Under the pieces are notes generated by a model, which made no database searches, was not told where the DNA came from, and saw only the letters and a program-made list of their open reading frames with translations. The translations under genes and the position numbers were made by a program. Shown here in pieces: positions 10,905-23,029 of a DNA stretch of 64,000 bases. How positions within the stretch are numbered: the first letter of the stretch is position 1; the number at the start of each line of letters is the position of its first letter. This DNA comes from Escherichia coli (GTDB lineage Bacteria > Pseudomonadota > Gammaproteobacteria > Enterobacterales > Enterobacteriaceae), in the NCBI RefSeq assembly GCF_003334355.1, contig NZ_QOWP01000003.1. One strand, given 5' to 3'.

Positions 10905-10917
10905 TTGTATTGTGATC

Positions 10918-11100
<183 letters not shown>

Positions 11101-11163: not shown

Positions 11164-11607
11164 ATGCCGTTAAGTCCCTACCTCTCTTTTGCCGGTAACT
11201 GTGCCGACGCAATTGCTTATTATCAACGTACGTTGGGCGCTGAACTGCTCTATAAAATCAGCTTCGGCGAAATGCCGAAATCAGCGCAGGACAGCGCCGA
11301 GAACTGCCCTTCCGGAATGCAATTTCCCGATACCGCCATCGCCCACGCCAATGTGCGCATTGCCGGAAGCGATATCATGATGAGCGATGCTATACCGTCA
11401 GGAAAAGCCAGCTACTCCGGCTTTACGCTGGTGCTCGATTCGCAACAGGTCGAAGAAGGAAAACGCTGGTTTGATAACCTTGCCGCTAACGGAAAAATCG
11501 AAATGGCCTGGCAGGAAACTTTCTGGGCGCATGGCTTCGGCAAAGTCACCGATAAATTTGGCGTACCGTGGATGATTAATGTCGTCAAACAACAACCAAC
11601 GCAATAA
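11164..11607 (+). CDS. phnB: Glyoxalase/VOC-family protein PhnB (YjdN)
   Basis: 147 aa MPLSPYLSFAGNCADAIAYYQRTLGAELLYK; position between phnA and phnC. Confidence 0.88.
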   Translation: MPLSPYLSFAGNCADAIAYYQRTLGAELLYKISFGEMPKSAQDSAENCPSGMQFPDTAIAHANVRIAGSDIMMSDAIPSGKASYSGFTLVLDSQQVEEGKRWFDNLAANGKIEMAWQETFWAHGFGKVTDKFGVPWMINVVKQQPTQ

Positions 11608-11662
11608 TCCGCCGGGAGGCCCGCCCTCCCGCACTGTCATCGAATTCCCGTTAACTCTTCAT

Positions 11663-11699
11663 CTGTTAGTCACTTTTAATTAACCAAATCGTCACAATA
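11663..11699 (+). promoter_or_regulatory. Candidate Pho box (PhoB binding) of the phnC promoter
   Basis: ctgttagTCACttttaatTAACcaaatcgTCACaataat shows 7-nt units separated by 4-nt TCAC/TAAC, as in Pho boxes (CTGTCAT-N4-CTGTCAT); about 45-75 bp upstream of phnC ATG. Confidence 0.5.
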
Positions 11700-11739
11700 A
11701 TCCGCCACGATGGAGCCACTTTTTTAGGGAGGCTGCATC

Positions 11740-12528
11740 ATGCAAACGATTATCCGTGTCGAGAAGCTCGCCAAAACCTTCAATCAGCATCAGGCGCTGC
11801 ATGCGGTTGATCTGAACATTCATCACGGTGAAATGGTGGCTCTGCTTGGGCCGTCCGGTTCCGGCAAATCCACCCTTTTACGTCACTTAAGCGGTTTGAT
11901 TACCGGCGATAAATCCGCCGGCAGCCATATCGAGCTGCTGGGCCGCACAGTCCAGCGCGAAGGCCGTCTGGCGCGCGATATCCGCAAAAGCCGCGCCAAC
12001 ACCGGCTACATCTTCCAACAATTCAACCTGGTGAACCGCCTGAGCGTACTGGAGAACGTGCTGATTGGCGCGCTCGGCAGCACGCCGTTCTGGCGCACCT
12101 GTTTTAGCTGGTTTACCCGCGAGCAGAAACAACGCGCGTTACAGGCGCTGACCCGCGTTGGCATGGTGCATTTTGCCCATCAACGCGTTTCCACCCTCTC
12201 CGGCGGACAGCAGCAGCGTGTGGCGATTGCCCGCGCGCTGATGCAGCAGGCGAAGGTGATTCTGGCCGATGAACCCATCGCCTCGCTGGACCCGGAATCC
12301 GCCCGCATCGTGATGGACACCCTGCGCGACATCAATCAGAACGACGGCATCACCGTGGTCGTCACGCTGCATCAGGTGGATTACGCCCTGCGCTACTGCG
12401 AACGCATCGTCGCCCTGCGCCAGGGGCACGTTTTCTACGACGGCAGCAGCCAACAGTTTGATAACGAACGTTTTGACCATCTCTACCGCAGCATTAATCG
12501 CATCGAAGAGAACGCGAAAGCTGCCTGA
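11740..12528 (+). CDS. phnC: Phosphonate ABC transporter ATP-binding protein
   Basis: 262 aa; Walker [13 protein letters not shown] signature LSGGQQQR. Confidence 0.95.
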
Positions 12529-12552
12529 CATCCCCATCATTGAGGAAAACGA

Positions 12553-13569
12553 ATGAACGCTAAGATAATTGCCTCGCTGGCCTTCACCAGCATGTTCAGC
12601 CTCAGCACCCTGTTAAGCCCGGCACACGCCGAAGAGCAGGAAAAGGCGCTGAATTTCGGCATTATTTCAACGGAATCACAGCAAAACCTGAAACCGCAAT
12701 GGACGCCATTCTTACAGGATATGGAGAAGAAGCTGGGCGTGAAGGTGAACGCCTTCTTTGCCCCAGACTACGCAGGCATTATCCAGGGAATGCGCTTCAA
12801 TAAAGTGGATATCGCCTGGTACGGCAACCTGTCGGCAATGGAAGCGGTGGATCGCGCCAACGGCCAGGTCTTCGCCCAGACGGTCGCGGCGGATGGATCG
12901 CCAGGTTACTGGAGCGTGTTGATCGTCAACAAAGATAGTCCGATCAACAACCTGAACGATCTGCTGGCGAAGCGGAAAGATCTCACCTTCGGCAATGGCG
13001 ATCCTAACTCCACCTCTGGCTTCCTCGTCCCCGGTTACTACGTCTTCGCCAAAAACAATATCTCCGCCAGCGACTTCAAGCGCACCGTCAACGCCGGGCA
13101 TGAAACCAACGCGCTGGCCGTCGCCAACAAGCAGGTGGATGTGGCGACCAACAACACCGAAAACCTCGACAAGCTGAAAACCTCCGCGCCGGAGAAGCTG
13201 AAAGAACTGAAAGTGATCTGGAAATCGCCGCTGATCCCAGGCGATCCGATCGTCTGGCGTAAAAATCTTTCCGAAACCACCAAAGACAAGATCTACGACT
13301 TCTTTATGAATTACGGCAAAACGCCGGAAGAGAAAGCGGTGCTGGAACGCCTGGGCTGGGCGCCGTTCCGCGCCTCCAGCGACCTGCAACTGGTGCCGAT
13401 TCGCCAGCTCGCACTGTTTAAAGAGATGCAGGGCGTGAAAAGCAATAAAGGACTGAATGAGCAGGACAAGCTGGCAAAAACCACCGCGATTCAGGCGCAA
13501 CTGGATGACCTGGACCGCCTGAACAACGCGCTAAGCGCGATGAGTTCGGTGAGTAAAGCGGTGCAGTAA
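12553..13569 (+). CDS. phnD: Phosphonate ABC transporter periplasmic binding protein
   Basis: 338 aa with signal peptide MNAKIIASLAFTSMFSLSTLLSPAHA. Confidence 0.95.
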   Translation: MNAKIIASLAFTSMFSLSTLLSPAHAEEQEKALNFGIISTESQQNLKPQWTPFLQDMEKKLGVKVNAFFAPDYAGIIQGMRFNKVDIAWYGNLSAMEAVDRANGQVFAQTVAADGSPGYWSVLIVNKDSPINNLNDLLAKRKDLTFGNGDPNSTSGFLVPGYYVFAKNNISASDFKRTVNAGHETNALAVANKQVDVATNNTENLDKLKTSAPEKLKELKVIWKSPLIPGDPIVWRKNLSETTKDKIYDFFMNYGKTPEEKAVLERLGWAPFRASSDLQLVPIRQLALFKEMQGVKSNKGLNEQDKLAKTTAIQAQLDDLDRLNNALSAMSSVSKAVQ

Positions 13570-13570
13570 A

Positions 13571-13660
13571 TCGTAGGTCGGATAAGACGCCCCGGCGTCG
13601 CATCCGACAATGTGCAGGCGTTGATGCCGGATGCGGTGCAAGCACCTTATCCGGCCTACA
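13571..13660. repeat. REP palindromic units between phnD and phnE
   Basis: ggtcggataagacgc...gcgtcgcatccgac and gccggatgcgg...ccttatccggc motifs. Confidence 0.8.
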
Positions 13661-13674
13661 GACCGGAGCCAAAC

Positions 13675-14454
13675 ATGCAAACCATCACCATCGCCCCACC
13701 CAAGCGCAGCTGGTTCTCGCTTCTGAGCTGGGCCGTTGTTCTCGCCGTGCTGGTCGTCTCGTGGCAGGGCGCGGAAATGGCCCCGCTCACGCTGATTAAA
13801 GACGGCGGCAACATGGCAACCTTCGCTGCCGACTTCTTCCCGCCCGATTTCAGCCAGTGGCAGGATTACCTCACCGAAATGGCCGTCACGCTGCAAATCG
13901 CCGTCTGGGGCACCGCGCTGGCGGTGGTTCTCTCCATCCCCTTTGGCCTGATGAGCGCCGAAAACCTGGTGCCGTGGTGGGTTTACCAGCCCGTTCGCCG
14001 CCTGATGGACGCCTGCCGCGCCATTAACGAAATGGTCTTCGCCATGCTGTTCGTGGTCGCCGTCGGTCTCGGACCGTTCGCTGGCGTGCTGGCGCTATTT
14101 ATCCACACCACCGGCGTGCTCTCCAAGCTGCTTTCCGAAGCGGTAGAAGCAATTGAACCTGGCCCGGTGGAAGGCATTCGCGCCACCGGTGCCAACAAGC
14201 TCGAAGAGATCCTCTACGGCGTGCTGCCGCAGGTGATGCCGCTGCTGATCTCCTACTCCCTCTATCGCTTCGAATCCAACGTCCGCTCGGCGACCGTCGT
14301 CGGCATGGTCGGCGCGGGCGGGATCGGCGTCACCCTGTGGGAAGCGATTCGCGGTTTCCAGTTCCAACAAACCTGCGCCCTGATGGTGCTTATCATCGTC
14401 ACGGTCAGCCTGCTGGATTTCCTCTCTCAACGGTTGCGTAAGCACTTTATCTGA
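13675..14454 (+). CDS. phnE: Phosphonate ABC transporter permease (intact reading frame)
   Basis: 259 aa from [28 protein letters not shown]; uninterrupted, unlike the frameshifted K-12 allele as I recall it; ORF-track start 13612 lies in the REP region. Confidence 0.9.
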
Positions 14455-14474
14455 TAAGCGAGGCATTGATATCT

Positions 14475-15200
14475 ATGCACTTGTCTACACATCCGACCAG
14501 CTACCCAACACGCTATCAAGAGATAGCCGCAAAACTTGAGCAGGAGCTTCGTCAACACTACCGCTGCGGCGACTATCTTCCCGCCGAGCAGCAACTGGCA
14601 GCGCGCTTTGAGGTGAATCGCCACACCCTGCGCCGCGCCATCGACCAACTGGTGGAAAAAGGCTGGGTACAGCGCCGTCAGGGCGTCGGCGTGCTGGTGC
14701 TGATGCGCCCGTTCGATTACCCGCTCAACGCCCAGGCGCGTTTTAGCCAGAATCTGCTGGATCAGGGCAGCCATCCCACCAGCGAAAAACTGCTTTCGGT
14801 ATTGCGCCCCGCGTCCGGCCACGTCGCTGACGCACTGGGGATTACCGAGGGGGAGAACGTCATCCACCTGCGCACCCTGCGTCGGGTCAACGGCGTCGCG
14901 CTCTGTTTAATCGACCACTACTTCGCGGACCTCACCCTCTGGCCGACGCTGCAACGCTTCGACAGCGGCTCGCTGCACGATTTTCTGCGCGAGCAAACCG
15001 GAATTGCGCTGCGCCGCAGCCAGACGCGGATCAGCGCCCGCCGCGCCCAGGCCAAAGAGTGCCAGCGTCTTGAAATCCCGAATATGTCGCCGCTGCTGTG
15101 CGTGCGCACCCTTAACCACCGTGACGGTGAAAGCAGCCCGGCGGAGTACTCCGTCAGCCTGACGCGCGCCGACATGATTGAATTCACTATGGAGCACTGA
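14475..15200 (+). CDS. phnF: GntR-family transcriptional regulator of phn operon
   Basis: 241 aa MHLSTHPTSYPTRYQEIAAKLEQELR; HTH plus UTRA-like C-terminus. Confidence 0.92.
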   Translation: MHLSTHPTSYPTRYQEIAAKLEQELRQHYRCGDYLPAEQQLAARFEVNRHTLRRAIDQLVEKGWVQRRQGVGVLVLMRPFDYPLNAQARFSQNLLDQGSHPTSEKLLSVLRPASGHVADALGITEGENVIHLRTLRRVNGVALCLIDHYFADLTLWPTLQRFDSGSLHDFLREQTGIALRRSQTRISARRAQAKECQRLEIPNMSPLLCVRTLNHRDGESSPAEYSVSLTRADMIEFTMEH

Positions 15201-15653
15201 ATGCACGCAGATACCGCGACCCGCCAGCACTGGATGTCCGTGCTGGCGCACAGCCAACCGGCTGAACTGGCAGCACGCCTGAACGCGCTAAACATCACCG
15301 CCGACTATGAGGTGATCCGCGCCGCTGAAACTGGCCTGGTACAGATTCAGGCGCGGATGGGCGGCACCGGCGAACGTTTTTTTGCCGGCGACGCCACGCT
15401 GACCCGCGCCGCCGTGCGCCTGACTGACGGCACGCTCGGCTACAGCTGGGTGCTGGGGCGTGATAAACAGCACGCCGAACGCTGCGCGCTGATTGACGCG
15501 CTGATGCAGCAATCTCGCCACTTTCAAAACTTATCAGAAACCCTTATTGCCCCGCTGGACGCTGACCGTATGGCACGCATTGCCGCACGCCAGGCCGAAG
15601 TGAACGCCAGCCGGGTCGACTTCTTTACGATGGTTCGCGGAGACAACGCATGA
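15201..15653 (+). CDS. phnG: C-P lyase complex subunit PhnG
   Basis: 150 aa, operon position, recognised sequence. Confidence 0.92.
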
Positions 15654-16234
15654 CCCTGGAAACCGCTTTTATGCTTCCCGTGCAGGATGCCCAGCACAGT
15701 TTTCGTCGCCTGTTAAAGGCCATGAGCGAGCCGGGCGTGATTGTCGCCCTGCATCAGCTCAAACGCGGCTGGCAACCGCTGAATATCGCCACCACCAGCG
15801 TGCTGCTGACGCTGGCCGATAACGACACGCCGGTGTGGCTTTCTACCCCATTAAATAACGATATCGTCAACCAGAGCCTGCGTTTTCATACCAACGCGCC
15901 GCTGGTCAGCCAGCCGGAACAGGCGACCTTCGCGGTGACGGATGAGGCGATTTCCAGCGAACAGCTCAACGCCCTTTCCACCGGCACCGCCGTTGCGCCG
16001 GAAGCGGGCGCGACGCTGATTTTACAGGTCGCCAGCCTGAGCGGCGGGCGCATGTTGCGTCTCACCGGCGCGGGTATTGCCGAAGAACGAATGATCGCTC
16101 CGCAGCTGCCGGAGTGCATTCTGCACGAACTCACCGAGCGCCCGCACCCGTTCCCGCTCGGCATCGACCTGATCCTGACCTGCGGCGAACGCCTGCTGGC
16201 TATTCCGCGAACCACGCATGTGGAGGTGTGCTGA
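15650..16234 (+). CDS. phnH: C-P lyase complex subunit PhnH
   Basis: 194 aa, overlapping start/stop with neighbours. Confidence 0.92.
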
Positions 16235-17298
16235 TGTACGTTGCCGTAAAAGGGGGCGAAAAGGCGATCAACGCCGCCCACGCCCTGCAAGAGAGCCGAC
16301 GCCGGGGCGATACCGATTTGCCTGAACTGAGCGTCGCCCAGATTGAACAGCAGCTTAACCTCGCGGTAGATCGCGTGATGACCGAAGGCGGCATTGCCGA
16401 CCGCGAACTGGCGGCGCTGGCGCTGAAACAGGCCAGCGGCGATAACGTTGAAGCGATTTTCCTGCTGCGCGCCTACCGCACCACGTTGGCGAAGCTGGCG
16501 GTAAGCGAGCCGCTCGACACCACCGGGATGCGTCTCGAACGCCGTATCTCCGCCGTTTATAAAGACATTCCCGGCGGCCAGCTGCTTGGCCCAACCTACG
16601 ACTACACCCATCGCCTGCTCGATTTTACCCTGCTGGCAAACGGCGAAGCGCCGACGCTGACCACCGCCGACAGCGAACAACAGCCGTCGCCGCACGTTTT
16701 CAGCCTGCTGGCGCGTCAGGGGCTGGCGAAGTTTGAAGAGGATAGCGGCGCACAGCCGGATGACATCACCCGCACGCCGCCGGTTTACCCCTGCTCACGT
16801 TCTTCCCGTTTGCAGCAGTTGATGCGCGGCGACGAAGGCTATTTGCTGGCGCTGGCCTACTCCACCCAGCGTGGTTACGGACGCAATCACCCGTTCGCGG
16901 GCGAGATCCGCAGTGGTTACATCGACGTGTCGATTGTGCCGGAAGAGCTGGGATTTGCGGTAAACGTCGGCGAACTACTGATGACCGAGTGTGAAATGGT
17001 CAACGGTTTTATCGACCCGCCGGATGAGCCGCCGCACTTCACGCGCGGCTACGGGCTGGTATTCGGCATGAGCGAGCGCAAAGCGATGGCAATGGCGCTG
17101 GTCGATCGTGCGTTGCAGGCTCCGGAATACGGCGAGCACGCGACAGGCCCGGCGCAGGATGAAGAGTTTGTGCTGGCACATGCCGACAACGTCGAAGCCG
17201 CAGGCTTTGTCTCGCACCTCAAACTCCCCCACTACGTCGATTTCCAGGCCGAACTGGAGCTACTCAAACGTCTGCAACAGGAGAAGAACCATGGCTAA
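16234..17298 (+). CDS. phnI: C-P lyase complex subunit PhnI
   Basis: 354 aa from [20 protein letters not shown]; ORF-track start 16114 is an upstream extension. Confidence 0.92.
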   Translation: MYVAVKGGEKAINAAHALQESRRRGDTDLPELSVAQIEQQLNLAVDRVMTEGGIADRELAALALKQASGDNVEAIFLLRAYRTTLAKLAVSEPLDTTGMRLERRISAVYKDIPGGQLLGPTYDYTHRLLDFTLLANGEAPTLTTADSEQQPSPHVFSLLARQGLAKFEEDSGAQPDDITRTPPVYPCSRSSRLQQLMRGDEGYLLALAYSTQRGYGRNHPFAGEIRSGYIDVSIVPEELGFAVNVGELLMTECEMVNGFIDPPDEPPHFTRGYGLVFGMSERKAMAMALVDRALQAPEYGEHATGPAQDEEFVLAHADNVEAAGFVSHLKLPHYVDFQAELELLKRLQQEKNHG

Positions 17299-18136
17299 TC
17301 TGAGCGGCTACAACTTTGCCTACCTCGACGAGCAGACCAAACGCATGATCCGCCGCGCCATCTTAAAAGCGGTGGCGATCCCCGGTTATCAGGTGCCGTT
17401 TGGCGGGCGCGAGATGCCGATGCCATACGGCTGGGGAACCGGCGGCATACAGCTCACCGCCAGCGTGATTGGCGAAAGCGACGTGCTAAAGGTGATTGAC
17501 CAGGGTGCGGATGACACCACCAACGCTGTGTCGATTCGCAACTTCTTTAAGCGCGTGACCGGGGTAAACACCACTGAACGTACGGACGATGCGACGCTTA
17601 TCCAGACGCGTCACCGCATCCCCGAAACGCCGCTGACCGAAGATCAGATCATTATCTTCCAGGTGCCAATCCCGGAACCGCTGCGCTTTATCGAGCCGCG
17701 CGAAACGGAGACCCGCACTATGCACGCGCTGGAGGAGTACGGCGTGATGCAGGTGAAACTGTATGAAGATATCGCCCGCTTCGGTCATATCGCCACCACC
17801 TATGCTTATCCGGTGAAGGTGAACGGGCGCTACGTGATGGACCCGTCGCCGATCCCGAAATTCGATAACCCGAAAATGGACATGATGCCCGCCCTGCAGC
17901 TGTTCGGAGCAGGGCGCGAGAAGCGCATCTATGCGGTGCCGCCGTTTACCCGCGTGGAAAGTCTCGATTTCGACGATCACCCGTTCACCGTTCAGCAGTG
18001 GGATGAGCCATGCGCCATCTGCGGATCGACCCACAGCTATCTTGATGAAGTGGTGCTGGATGACGCCGGAAACCGCATGTTTGTCTGCTCCGATACCGAT
18101 TATTGCCGCCAACAGAGCGAGGCAAAAAACCAATGA
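17291..18136 (+). CDS. phnJ: C-P lyase catalytic subunit PhnJ (radical SAM-like, CxxCxxxxxC)
   Basis: 281 aa from MANLSGYNFAYLDEQTKRMIRRAILKAVAIPGYQVPF; C-terminal CAICGSTHSYLDEVVLDDAGNRMFVCSDTDYC. Confidence 0.93.
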   Translation: MANLSGYNFAYLDEQTKRMIRRAILKAVAIPGYQVPFGGREMPMPYGWGTGGIQLTASVIGESDVLKVIDQGADDTTNAVSIRNFFKRVTGVNTTERTDDATLIQTRHRIPETPLTEDQIIIFQVPIPEPLRFIEPRETETRTMHALEEYGVMQVKLYEDIARFGHIATTYAYPVKVNGRYVMDPSPIPKFDNPKMDMMPALQLFGAGREKRIYAVPPFTRVESLDFDDHPFTVQQWDEPCAICGSTHSYLDEVVLDDAGNRMFVCSDTDYCRQQSEAKNQ

Positions 18137-18891
18137 ATCAACCGTTACTTTCGGTCAATAACCTGACCCACCTTTACGCGCCGGGCAAAGGCTTTAGCGA
18201 TGTCTCTTTTGATTTATGGCCGGGGGAAGTGCTGGGCATTGTCGGGGAATCCGGCTCCGGGAAGACCACGCTGCTGAAGTCGATCTCCGCGCGCCTGACG
18301 CCGCAGCAGGGGGAAATTCACTACGAGAACCGTTCGCTGTATGCAATGAGCGAGGCCGACCGCCGTCGCCTGCTGCGTACCGAATGGGGCGTGGTGCATC
18401 AGCATCCACTCGACGGCCTGCGCCGCCAGGTGTCGGCAGGCGGCAATATCGGCGAGCGGCTGATGGCGACCGGGGCACGTCATTACGGCGATATTCGTGC
18501 CACCGCGCAGAAGTGGCTGGAAGAGGTGGAGATTCCCGCCAACCGGATCGACGACCTGCCGACCACCTTTTCCGGCGGTATGCAGCAGCGTTTGCAGATT
18601 GCCCGCAACCTGGTGACGCATCCGAAGCTGGTGTTTATGGATGAACCGACCGGCGGGCTGGATGTGTCGGTGCAGGCCCGCCTGCTCGACCTGCTGCGCG
18701 GCCTGGTGGTGGAGCTGAACCTCGCGGTGGTGATTGTCACCCATGATTTAGGCGTCGCCCGCCTGCTGGCGGACCGTTTGCTGGTGATGAAGCAGGGGCA
18801 AGTGGTGGAGAGTGGGTTAACCGACCGCGTGCTCGACGACCCGCATCATCCGTATACACAGCTGCTGGTGTCATCGGTTTTGCAGAATTGA
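18133..18891 (+). CDS. phnK: C-P lyase-associated ABC ATPase PhnK
   Basis: 252 aa from [15 protein letters not shown]; Walker [10 protein letters not shown]. Confidence 0.92.
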
Positions 18892-18985
<94 letters not shown>

Positions 18986-19001
18986 AACCACGAGGCGAAA
19001 A

Positions 19002-19682
19002 ATGATTAACGTACAAAACGTCAGTAAAACCTTCATCCTGCACCAGCAAAACGGCGTGCGCCTGCCCGTCCTCAATCGCGCCTCGCTCACCGTCAACGCG
19101 GGCGAATGCGTGGTGCTCCACGGCCATTCCGGCAGCGGCAAATCAACTCTGCTACGCTCGCTGTACGCCAACTATCTACCCGACGAAGGTCAAATCCAGA
19201 TCAAACACGGTGACGAGTGGGTAGACCTGGTCACCGCGCCAGCGCGCAAAGTGGTGGAAATCCGCAAAACCACCGTCGGCTGGGTGAGCCAGTTTCTGCG
19301 CGTCATCCCGCGTATCTCAGCACTGGAAGTGGTGATGCAGCCGCTGCTCGATACCGGCGTTCCGCGTGAAGCCTGCGCCGCTAAAGCCGCGCGTCTTCTC
19401 ACCCGCCTGAACGTGCCGGAACGCCTGTGGCACCTGGCACCATCGACATTTTCCGGTGGCGAACAGCAGCGCGTCAACATCGCCCGCGGCTTTATCGTCG
19501 ACTACCCCATTCTGCTGCTTGACGAACCTACCGCCTCGCTGGACGCCAAAAACAGCGCCGCGGTGGTGGAACTGATTCGCGAAGCCAAAACCCGTGGCGC
19601 AGCCATCGTAGGCATCTTCCATGACGAAGCTGTACGTAATGACGTCGCCGACCGCCTGCACCCAATGGGAGCCTCTTCATGA
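19002..19682 (+). CDS. phnL: C-P lyase-associated ABC ATPase PhnL
   Basis: 226 aa from [11 protein letters not shown]; Walker [10 protein letters not shown]. Confidence 0.92.
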
Positions 19683-20815
19683 TTATCAATAACGTTAAGC
19701 TGGTGCTGGAAAACGAGGTGGTAAGCGGTTCGCTGGAGGTGCAGAACGGCGAAATCCGCGCCTTTGCCGAAAGCCAGAGCCGCCTGCCGGAGGCGATGGA
19801 CGGCGAAGGCGGCTGGCTGCTGCCGGGGCTGATTGAGCTGCATACCGATAATCTGGATAAATTCTTCACCCCGCGCCCGAAAGTTGACTGGCCTGCCCAC
19901 TCGGCGATGAGCAGCCACGACGCGCTGATGGTGGCGAGCGGCATCACCACCGTACTGGATGCCGTGGCAATTGGCGACGTGCGCGACGGCGGCGATCGGC
20001 TGGAGAATCTGGAGAAGATGATCAACGCCATCGAAGAGACGCAGAAACGCGGCGTCAACCGCGCCGAGCACCGTCTGCATCTGCGCTGCGAACTGCCGCA
20101 TCACACCACGCTGCCGCTGTTTGAAAAACTGGTGCAGCGCGAGCCGGTGACGCTGGTGTCGCTGATGGACCACTCGCCGGGCCAGCGCCAGTTCGCCAAC
20201 CGCGAGAAGTATCGCGAATATTATCAGGGCAAATACTCCCTCACTGATGCGCAGATGCAGCAGTACGAAGAAGAGCAACTGGCGCTCGCCGCACGCTGGT
20301 CGCAGCCGAATCGCGAATCCATCGCCGCCCTGTGCCGCGCGCGAAAAATTGCGCTTGCCAGCCACGATGACGCCACCCACGCCCACGTTGCTGAATCTCA
20401 CCAGCTTGGCAGCGTGATCGCCGAATTTCCCACCACGTTCGAAGCGGCGGAAGCCTCGCGCAAGCATGGCATGAACGTGCTGATGGGCGCGCCGAATATT
20501 GTGCGCGGCGGCTCGCACTCCGGCAACGTGGCGGCCAGTGAACTGGCGCAGCTTGGCCTGCTGGATATCCTCTCTTCCGACTACTACCCCGCCAGCCTGC
20601 TCGATGCGGCATTTCGCGTCGCCGATGACGAGAGCAACCGCTTTACGCTGCCGCAGGCGGTGAAGCTGGTGACTAAAAATCCAGCGCAGGCGCTTAATCT
20701 CCAGGATCGCGGGGTGATTGGCGAGGGCAAACGCGCCGACCTGGTGCTGGCGCATCGCAAGGACAATCATATTCATATCGACCACGTCTGGCGTCAGGGT
20801 AAAAGGGTGTTCTGA
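19679..20815 (+). CDS. phnM: Amidohydrolase-family PhnM (ribosyl-triphosphate-phosphonate diphosphohydrolase)
   Basis: 378 aa [29 protein letters not shown]. Confidence 0.92.
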
Positions 20816-21372
20816 TGATGGGAAAACTGATTTGGTTAATGGGGCCGTCCGGCTCCGGGAAAGACAGCCTGCTGGCGGAACTCCGCCTGCGGGAACAAAC
20901 TCAGTTACTGGTGGCGCATCGCTACATCACGCGCGATGCCAGCGCCGGAAGTGAAAACCATATCGCCCTGAGCGAGCAGGAGTTTTTTACCCGCGCGGGG
21001 CAAAATCTGTTGGCCTTAAGCTGGCACGCTAACAGTCTGTATTATGGCGTCGGCGTCGAGATTGATCTCTGGCTGCACGCCGGATTCGACGTGCTGGTCA
21101 ACGGCTCACGCGCCCATCTGCCGCAGGCGCGGGCGCGCTATCAATCGGCGCTGCTGCCCGTCTGTTTACAGGTTTCGCCGGAGATCCTCCGCCAGCGCCT
21201 GGAAAACCGTGGCCGTGAAAACGCCAGTGAAATTAACGCCCGCCTGGCGCGCGCCGCCCGCTATACTCCACAGGATTGCCATACGCTCAACAATGACGGC
21301 AGCCTGCGCCAGTCGGTCGACACGCTGCTGACGCTGATCCATCAGAAGGAGAAACACCATGCCTGCTTGTGA
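20815..21372 (+). CDS. phnN: Ribose 1,5-bisphosphate phosphokinase PhnN
   Basis: 185 aa; P-loop GPSGSGKDS. Confidence 0.92.
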
Positions 21373-21793
21373 GCTTCGCCCGGCCACGCAGTACGACACC
21401 GACGCGGTTTACGCGCTGATTTGTGAGCTAAAACAGGCGGAGTTTGACCACCACGCGTTTCGCGTGGGTTTTAACGCCAATCTGCGCGACCCAAACATGC
21501 GCTACCATCTGGCGCTGCTTGATGGCGAAGTTGTCGGCATGATCGGCCTGCATTTGCAGTTTCATCTGCATCATGTCAACTGGATCGGCGAAATTCAGGA
21601 GTTGGTGGTAATGCCGCAGGCGCGCGGTCTGAACGTCGGCAGTAAGTTACTGGCGTGGGCAGAAGAAGAAGCCCGCCAGGCCGGGGCCGAAATGACCGAA
21701 CTTTCGACCAACGTGAAGCGCCACGACGCGCACCGTTTCTATCTGCGCGAAGGCTACGAGCAGAGCCACTTCCGCTTCACCAAGGCGCTGTAA
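21359..21793 (+). CDS. phnO: Aminoalkylphosphonate N-acetyltransferase PhnO (GNAT)
   Basis: 144 aa GNAT fold, operon position. Confidence 0.92.
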
Positions 21794-21794
21794 C

Positions 21795-22553
21795 ATGAGC
21801 CTGACCCTCACGCTCACCGGCACCGGCGGCGCACAGGGCGTTCCGGCATGGGGCTGCGAGTGTGCGGCCTGCGCCAGAGCGCGGCGCTCGCCGCAGTATC
21901 GCCGCCAACCGTGCAGCGGCGTAGTGAAGTTTAACGACGCAATCACCCTGATCGACGCCGGGCTGCACGATCTCGCCGATCGCTGGTCGCCCGGATCGTT
22001 CCAGCAGTTTTTGCTGACGCATTATCATATGGATCACGTCCAGGGGCTGTTTCCGCTGCGCTGGGGCGTTGGCGATCCGATCCCGGTTTACGGCCCGCCG
22101 GATGAACAGGGCTGCGACGATCTGTTTAAACATCCGGGCCTGCTTGATTTCAGCCACACGGTGGAACCGTTTGTGGTGTTTGATTTGCAGGGGTTACAGG
22201 TCACGCCCCTGCCGCTCAACCACTCAAAACTGACCTTCGGTTATCTGCTGGAAACGGCACACAGCCGGGTGGCGTGGCTGTCTGACACCGCAGGCTTGCC
22301 GGAAAAAACGCTGAAATTTTTACGCAATAATCAGCCGCAGGTAATGGTGATGGATTGCAGTCACCCGCCGCGCGCGGATGCACCGCGTAATCACTGTGAT
22401 TTAAATACCGTGCTTGCGCTGAATCAGGTTATCCGCTCGCCACGGGTGATTCTGACCCATATCAGCCACCAGTTTGATGCGTGGCTGATGGAAAACGCAC
22501 TACCGTCAGGGTTTGAGGTGGGGTTTGATGGGATGGAGATTGGGGTGGCGTGA
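21795..22553 (+). CDS. phnP: Phosphoribosyl cyclic phosphodiesterase PhnP (metallo-beta-lactamase fold)
   Basis: 252 aa; HYHMDH metal-binding motif. Confidence 0.92.
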
Positions 22554-22554
22554 T

Positions 22555-22690
22555 GAGAGGGAATGTGCGCGCTGGCCCCCTCACCCTAACCCTCTCCCCA
22601 GAGGGGCGAGGGGACCGATTGTGCTCGATATTGAATATTGCGCTCGTTTTCTCCCTCTCCCCATTGGGGTGAGGGGCGATGCCTGCTCCA
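22555..22690. repeat. Two GC-rich imperfect palindromic elements (cccctcaccc...ggggtgagggg type), box C-like
   Basis: ccctcaccctaaccctctccccagaggggcgaggggacc and ctccctctccccattggggtgaggggcg read directly; family assignment is from memory and uncertain. Confidence 0.5.
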
Positions 22691-22699
22691 TACCCAACC

Positions 22700-23029
22700 T
22701 CATCGCCCATACTCATCTTCCATTCTCCGCTCTTCATCCTCCAGTTGCCGACGCTCCTGATCAAGCTGGCGCTGGCGATCGTCCAGCTGCCTGCGGCGAT
22801 CTTCAAACTGGCGGCGGCGGTCGTCATATTGTCTGCGCCGATCGTCGCTCACTTCACGCTGCCAGCCGTCGTCGCGCGAATCTTCATAGTCTCGCCCACG
22901 GTCAGGGTTATAAGCGTCATTAATCGCCTGCTGAATATTGCCAATGGTGTCGTCGATAATATCGGCCTGGGCCGGAACGGTGGACAGCGTGAGCAGGGTG
23001 AATAAAAGAAATAGCGGAAAGCGTTTCAT
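22700..23029 (-). CDS. yjdP: Secreted, highly charged repeat protein YjdP
   Basis: 109 aa; signal peptide MKRFPLFLLFTLLTLSTVPAQA then Arg/Asp/Gln-rich decapeptide-like repeats (DDRRRQYDDRRRQFEDRRRQLDDRQRQLD). Confidence 0.85.
   Translation of the reverse strand: MKRFPLFLLFTLLTLSTVPAQADIIDDTIGNIQQAINDAYNPDRGRDYEDSRDDGWQREVSDDRRRQYDDRRRQFEDRRRQLDDRQRQLDQERRQLEDEERRMEDEYGR

Follow-up and report, generated by a model that had tools for sequence, protein, structure and literature searches.

An intact phnE with two 8-bp units, matching E. coli B at every nucleotide, within a complete phn operon of Escherichia coli

The phnE gene in the window (the whole 64-kb stretch of Escherichia coli DNA that was analysed) very probably carries the known 8-bp slippage site in its functional two-unit state, with the allele of E. 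coli B, an intact operon and a promoter region equal to that of E. coli B, and with phosphonate use as the predicted phenotype. The two-unit phnE, the intact 14-gene operon and its promoter region together lead to the prediction of phosphonate uptake and cleavage: judged from its sequence, the strain would import phosphonates and break them down with no prior mutation once phosphate becomes limiting. Unlike K-12, it is predicted to use phosphonates without a reversion step. PhnCDE also takes up phosphate (Stasi et al., 2019; PMC6469041), and the same is predicted for the strain of the window.

The two-unit allele is already known, being the textbook functional allele of E. coli B, and since it is also the majority state of the species, no new biology follows from it. 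The value for annotation is that phnE of this strain is to be called intact. The two-unit state is the ordinary and probably the ancestral coding sequence, and the third unit of the K-12 type is a duplication mostly inherited within one clade and reversible in the laboratory.

The phnE gene and its repeat tract

The gene phnE, which encodes the permease of a phosphonate ABC transporter, occupies positions 13675 to 14454 on the plus strand (780 nt, 259 aa; WP_001193500.1). No internal stop was found between the ATG at 13675 and the stop codon ending at 14454, which confirmed the uninterrupted frame of 259 codons described in an earlier reading made from the letters of the DNA (the sequence-only reading). 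The protein scored 311.5 bits against the NCBIfam equivalog model TIGR01097 (cutoff, 216.7), and its residues 16-258 aligned to profile positions 8-251 of 252, representing a full-length match. Among 5,426 complete E. coli genomes, 5,395 contain a match to the gene (identity, 90-100%), with a phnE annotation throughout, and the exact PhnE protein of the window was present on at least 1000 contigs. The GTG at 13612, which would open a 280-aa ORF, was considered as an alternative start and dropped; on identical sequence, RefSeq places the start at the ATG at 13675. The 105-nt spacer between phnD and phnE shows no differences between the window and K-12, and most of it is occupied by a REP-type element on the minus strand (13576-13656; Rfam naRNA4, 69 bits), which sits directly 5′ of the phnE start. 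Among the Rfam matches in the window, none concerns the phnE repeat site.

As read directly from the window, GCTGGCGTGCTGGCGC is located at positions 14080-14095 on the plus strand within the phnE ORF, starting at gene position 406. It is composed of the tandem 8-bp units GCTGGCGT GCTGGCGC, which represent the known slippage site of phnE with the reading frame preserved, and codes for A136-G137-V138-L139-A140 plus the first base of L141. The two tandem 8-bp copies pointed out by the sequence-only reading are present here, though the octamers agree at seven of eight positions, and the strictly period-8 stretch is GCTGGCG-T-GCTGGCG (14080-14094). A pattern search of the 64-kb window for GCTGGCGYGCTGGCGY returned 14080-14095 as the sole match.

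Tandem 8-bp units with at most one mismatch were counted over the whole window and compared with Markov-1 simulations as the null. The results showed no excess over chance, with 20 loci in the window versus 17.6 ± 3.6 expected. Tandem Repeats Finder (minimum score, 30) did not report 14080-14095 either, because two 8-bp units lie below its size range. The significance of the tract derives wholly from its positional homology to the known K-12 site.

Comparison with K-12

Strain RP437 served as the K-12 reference for the alignment of phnE. Its gene contains GCTGGCGT GCTGGCGT GCTGGCGC at gene positions 406-429, with units starting at 406, 414 and 422, and the comparison with phnE of the window revealed a single repeat-number difference, namely one added GCTGGCGT in K-12 at the equivalent of 14080-14095. 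Alignment with K-12 had been proposed by the sequence-only reading as a check, and it placed the extra 8-bp unit exactly at this site; a frameshift elsewhere in K-12 phnE was looked for in the same alignment and was not found. The RP437 gene is 788 nt long and annotated as "frameshifted" (pseudogene), as is that of ECONIH6, likewise of 788 nt, versus 780 nt and an intact frame in REL606, strain 214-4 and the window. The alignment and the K-12 annotation thus agree with the earlier inference that 14080-14095 corresponds to the site at which K-12 is cryptic.

The product of the three-unit gene is native for 140 residues and then runs to a stop at codon 190, and the EAA-type loop of intact PhnE starts at residue 155, past the K-12 frame change. 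Removing one unit from K-12 phnE in silico yielded a protein 100% identical to PhnE of the window, and the two genes have 17 synonymous differences besides the repeat. On the larger scale, the window is 99.0-99.5% identical to K-12 and collinear with its reverse strand from about 4,337,165 to 4,272,424. When all 64 kb were compared base by base, the 8-bp gap in phnE was the sole indel of more than 1 nt outside the copy-number differences of two REP arrays.

The published work on this site is in line with the alignment. Reversion of K-12 was reported to consist in the loss of 5′-GCTGGCGT at ORF positions 407-414 (Stasi et al., 2019; PMC6469041), and this deletion site coincides with the repeat site of the window and K-12. 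The operon phn(EcoB) is proficient, whereas K-12 is deficient through an 8-bp duplication that is shed by revertants (Hove-Jensen et al., 2012; PMC3463581), and frequent slippage at the direct repeats was put forward as the cause of the deletion (Moreau and Loiseau, 2016; PMC4759930). The cryptic K-12 operon, phn(EcoK0), shares the site (gene position 406 onward) and the unit sequence with the window, but has three units versus two. With regard to the phn(EcoK+) revertants, the PhnE obtained from K-12 by in-silico reversion is the same protein as that of the window.

These data suggested the following course of events. The octamer pair would result from codon choice for the Ala-Gly-Val-Leu-Ala stretch of a permease membrane segment, and slippage during replication between the 7-nt direct repeats GCTGGCG, a mechanism inferred from the literature, could add a unit. 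With three units, as in K-12, the frame is lost beyond residue 140 and translation ends at the stop at codon 190, so that the permease lacks its C-terminal half together with the EAA-type loop. Slippage could also delete the extra unit again, and a gene with two units would give the whole permease.

Integrity of the phn operon

The genes phnC to phnP span positions 11740-22553, and all 14 of them are present in the canonical order on one strand, the plus strand. The annotated locus of identical sequence shows this gene order as well. Upstream of phnE are phnC (11740-12528; ABC transporter ATPase, 262 aa) and phnD (12553-13569; periplasmic phosphonate-binding protein, 338 aa). Downstream, phnF (14475-15200; GntR-family regulator, 241 aa) is followed by the full-length genes of the C-P lyase core, phnG (15201-15653), phnH (15650-16234), phnI (16234-17298) and phnJ (17291-18136), and by phnK (18133-18891) and phnL (19002-19682), which encode ABC-type ATPase subunits of the C-P lyase system. 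The series ends with phnM (19679-20815), phnN (20815-21372), phnO (21359-21793) and phnP (21795-22553), each of full length.

No stops or frameshifts were found in the 14 phn genes, and, the extra phnE unit of RP437 apart, every gene has the length seen in K-12, in strain 214-4 and in REL606 of E. coli B. All 12 proteins for which NCBIfam models exist (PhnC, D, E, F, G, H, K, L, M, N, O and P) scored above the equivalog cutoffs. PhnI and PhnJ, for which NCBIfam has no model, matched Pfam PF05861 (E = 3e-154) and PF06007 (E = 5e-151), respectively, from end to end. In addition, PhnC, D, E, G, J and M each occur on at least 1000 contigs in exactly the allelic form of the window. The statement of the sequence-only reading that phnCDEFGHIJKLMNOP is intact was borne out for all 14 genes, and their sequences gave no sign of a disabling defect outside the phnE repeat, which that reading had named as evidence against its own conclusion.

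The region 5′ of phnC (11609-11739, plus strand) is 131 nt long and identical in the window, K-12 and REL606. It contains CTGTTAGTCACTTTTAATTAAC, reportedly the Pho-box region (Makino, 1991). The phoB/phoR and pst regulators are not encoded within the window.

Comparison with E. coli B

The phnE genes of the window and of E. coli B REL606 differ at 0 of 780 nt. The identity extends without interruption over 4.4 kb (11857-16269), from the 3′ portion of phnC up to and including phnH, and over the 11.3 kb that hold the operon and its flanks (11401-22700), the two strains are 99.8% identical, with 23 SNPs and no gaps. The classical functional operon of E. coli B, phn(EcoB), has the same two 8-bp units in a phnE that is identical at the nucleotide level; its PhnC, D, E, F, G, H, J, L and O proteins are those of the window, and gene order, the length of every gene and the promoter region agree as well. 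The proteins of the window differ from those of phn(EcoB) by PhnI D13N, PhnK C232R, PhnM Q318E, PhnN G74S and PhnP F7L, and at the PhnK C232R and PhnP F7L sites the window has the K-12 residues.

The divergence between the window and K-12 was observed to be a mosaic, in which many 1-kb bins with 0-1 differences alternate with blocks of 1-3.7% difference. The divergent blocks are located at about 9-15, 16-18, 31-36, 40-45 and 50-58 kb of the window; one of them takes in the genes from phnC to phnE, where the window equals E. coli B instead, and phnK to phnP are almost identical to K-12. This mosaic pattern suggests recombination tracts.

Unit number across E. coli and relatives

The unit number was called with a 144-nt query from three-unit K-12, three units being assigned at ≥95% identity and two units at ≤94.4% with a 136-nt footprint. 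A 136-nt two-unit query from the window was rejected as a classifier, as flanking SNPs in B2/O157 genomes also drop two-unit genomes below 95%; the K-12 three-unit query and a two-unit query with K-12 flanks replaced it for the unit counts. The results showed that 1,009 of the 5,395 E. coli records (about 19%) have a three-unit phnE. The remaining 81% or so (about 4,400 complete genomes) have two units, except for a small number of alleles that are truncated or have four units. For the local haplotype resembling K-12 (≥99% identity), 1,525 two-unit records and, over 144 nt, 999 three-unit records were counted, giving a three-unit share of about 40%, versus about 10 three-unit and about 2,860 two-unit records in other haplotypes. 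The notion of a K-12 peculiarity is qualified by these counts, given that the three-unit pseudogene is found in about one-fifth of the complete genomes, mostly in one haplotype.

Among the matches listed were 30 three-unit records. About nine belong to K-12 derivatives kept in laboratories, and the others, roughly 70%, come from non-laboratory isolates of human, animal or food origin. Two MG1655 records differ from each other, one having three units and the other two, and in one strain, LR-71-1, phnE has four units together with a nonsense mutation at codon 105. Conservation of the tract beyond E. coli was not seen in the two outgroups examined, in which substitutions break it: the homologous codons read GCGGGGGTGATGGCGC in Salmonella enterica subsp. 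indica and GCTGGCGTACTGGCGC in Pseudocitrobacter. A literature search on three-unit alleles in natural isolates returned nothing relevant.

Alternative explanations

Simple-sequence contingency loci are exemplified by the tetranucleotide repeats of lic in Haemophilus influenzae and the pentanucleotide repeats of opa in Neisseria. The phnE site resembles them in that expression of the gene is turned on or off by frame changes that follow from the number of units within the ORF, and in that the unit number varies among close relatives. This raised the possibility that the phnE tract is itself a selected phase-variation locus that flips often in nature, the window having been caught in its ON phase. 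The occurrence of two-, three- and four-unit alleles among E. coli genomes, the discordant MG1655 records and the abundance of both states within the K-12-like haplotype speak for such a locus. Unlike contingency loci, however, phnE has merely two or three imperfect octamers, the length of its two-unit tract is within the range of chance, and the tract is unconserved in related genera, where its disruption in S. enterica subsp. indica and Pseudocitrobacter does not suggest a conserved design. The nonsense codon in the four-unit allele looks like decay rather than switching. Moreover, the OFF state is nearly limited to one haplotype, a distribution more in keeping with descent than with lineages that all flip often. 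On balance, we consider a selected, often flipping switch possible but unlikely. The "ON configuration" of the sequence-only reading holds as far as it denotes a working two-unit allele; the term goes too far in implying a dedicated switch, two units being the common and probably ancestral allele. A narrower proposal is that the three-unit OFF allele is part of a balanced natural ON/OFF polymorphism in one E. coli clade, with the window in the ON state, and that the balance may come from the cost of taking up toxic phosphonates, such as fosfomycin, through PhnCDE. We regard this balance as doubtful, and the window contributes nothing new to it.

Two further alternatives call the functional state itself into question. 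The operon might be dead in spite of an intact phnE, through PhnI D13N, PhnN G74S or PhnM Q318E or through a regulatory defect outside the window. The three substitutions indeed occur in neither K-12 nor E. coli B, and two of them are rare, the allele carrying PhnI D13N (window position 16270) being found on 5 contigs and that with PhnN G74S (window position 21034) on 11. However, PhnI position 13 is highly variable, as are positions 264 and 351, among 26 representatives of 34-53% identity; PhnN position 74, though flanked by invariant residues, is G, N or D in 20 Enterobacteriaceae homologues; and the PhnM Q318E allele is present on at least 1000 contigs. A hidden disabling missense mutation was accordingly dropped as unsupported, with the substitutions falling in variable columns or belonging to common alleles. 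The 14 genes free of stops and frameshifts and a promoter region equal to that of E. coli B also argue against a dead operon, and phnN is reported to be accessory rather than essential (Metcalf and Wanner, 1993). A dead operon is thus regarded as very improbable. It is also conceivable that two units were called in error, as the consensus of a mixed culture or through collapse of the repeat during assembly. Frequent slippage has been reported in K-12 (PMC4759930), so mixed cultures are possible, but a tract of 16 to 24 nt is far below any read length, so collapse is impossible. The identical two-unit sequence, moreover, recurs in the roughly 4,400 independent complete genomes, and the 4.4 kb around the site are identical to REL606. 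We give an artefact hardly any credence, and a genuine two-unit allele in an operon predicted to be functional remains the preferred reading.

Other features of the window

No tRNA genes were found in the 64-kb window. Searches against Rfam identified three expected elements at full length, namely the fdhF SECIS element (37943-37997, plus strand), the sRNA sraL (58495-58635, plus strand) and STnc630 (5090-5255, minus strand). Two REP/BIME arrays are longer in K-12 than in the window. The array in the yjdM-yjdN spacer (10916-11098; naRNA4 at 10922-10998 and 11022-11099) is longer there by about 400 nt, and that in the gltP-yjcO spacer (40464-40724; naRNA4 at 40466-40536 and 40579-40649) by about 340 nt. 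The gene espX5/yjcF (53485-54778, plus strand), encoding a pentapeptide-repeat protein of 430 aa in K-12, is split in the window into ORFs of 128 and 333 aa, as one nucleotide that K-12 lacks is inserted near 53861. The gene is annotated as "frameshifted" in ATCC 8739, and the 60-nt sequence at the indel was found exactly in 160 complete E. coli genomes.
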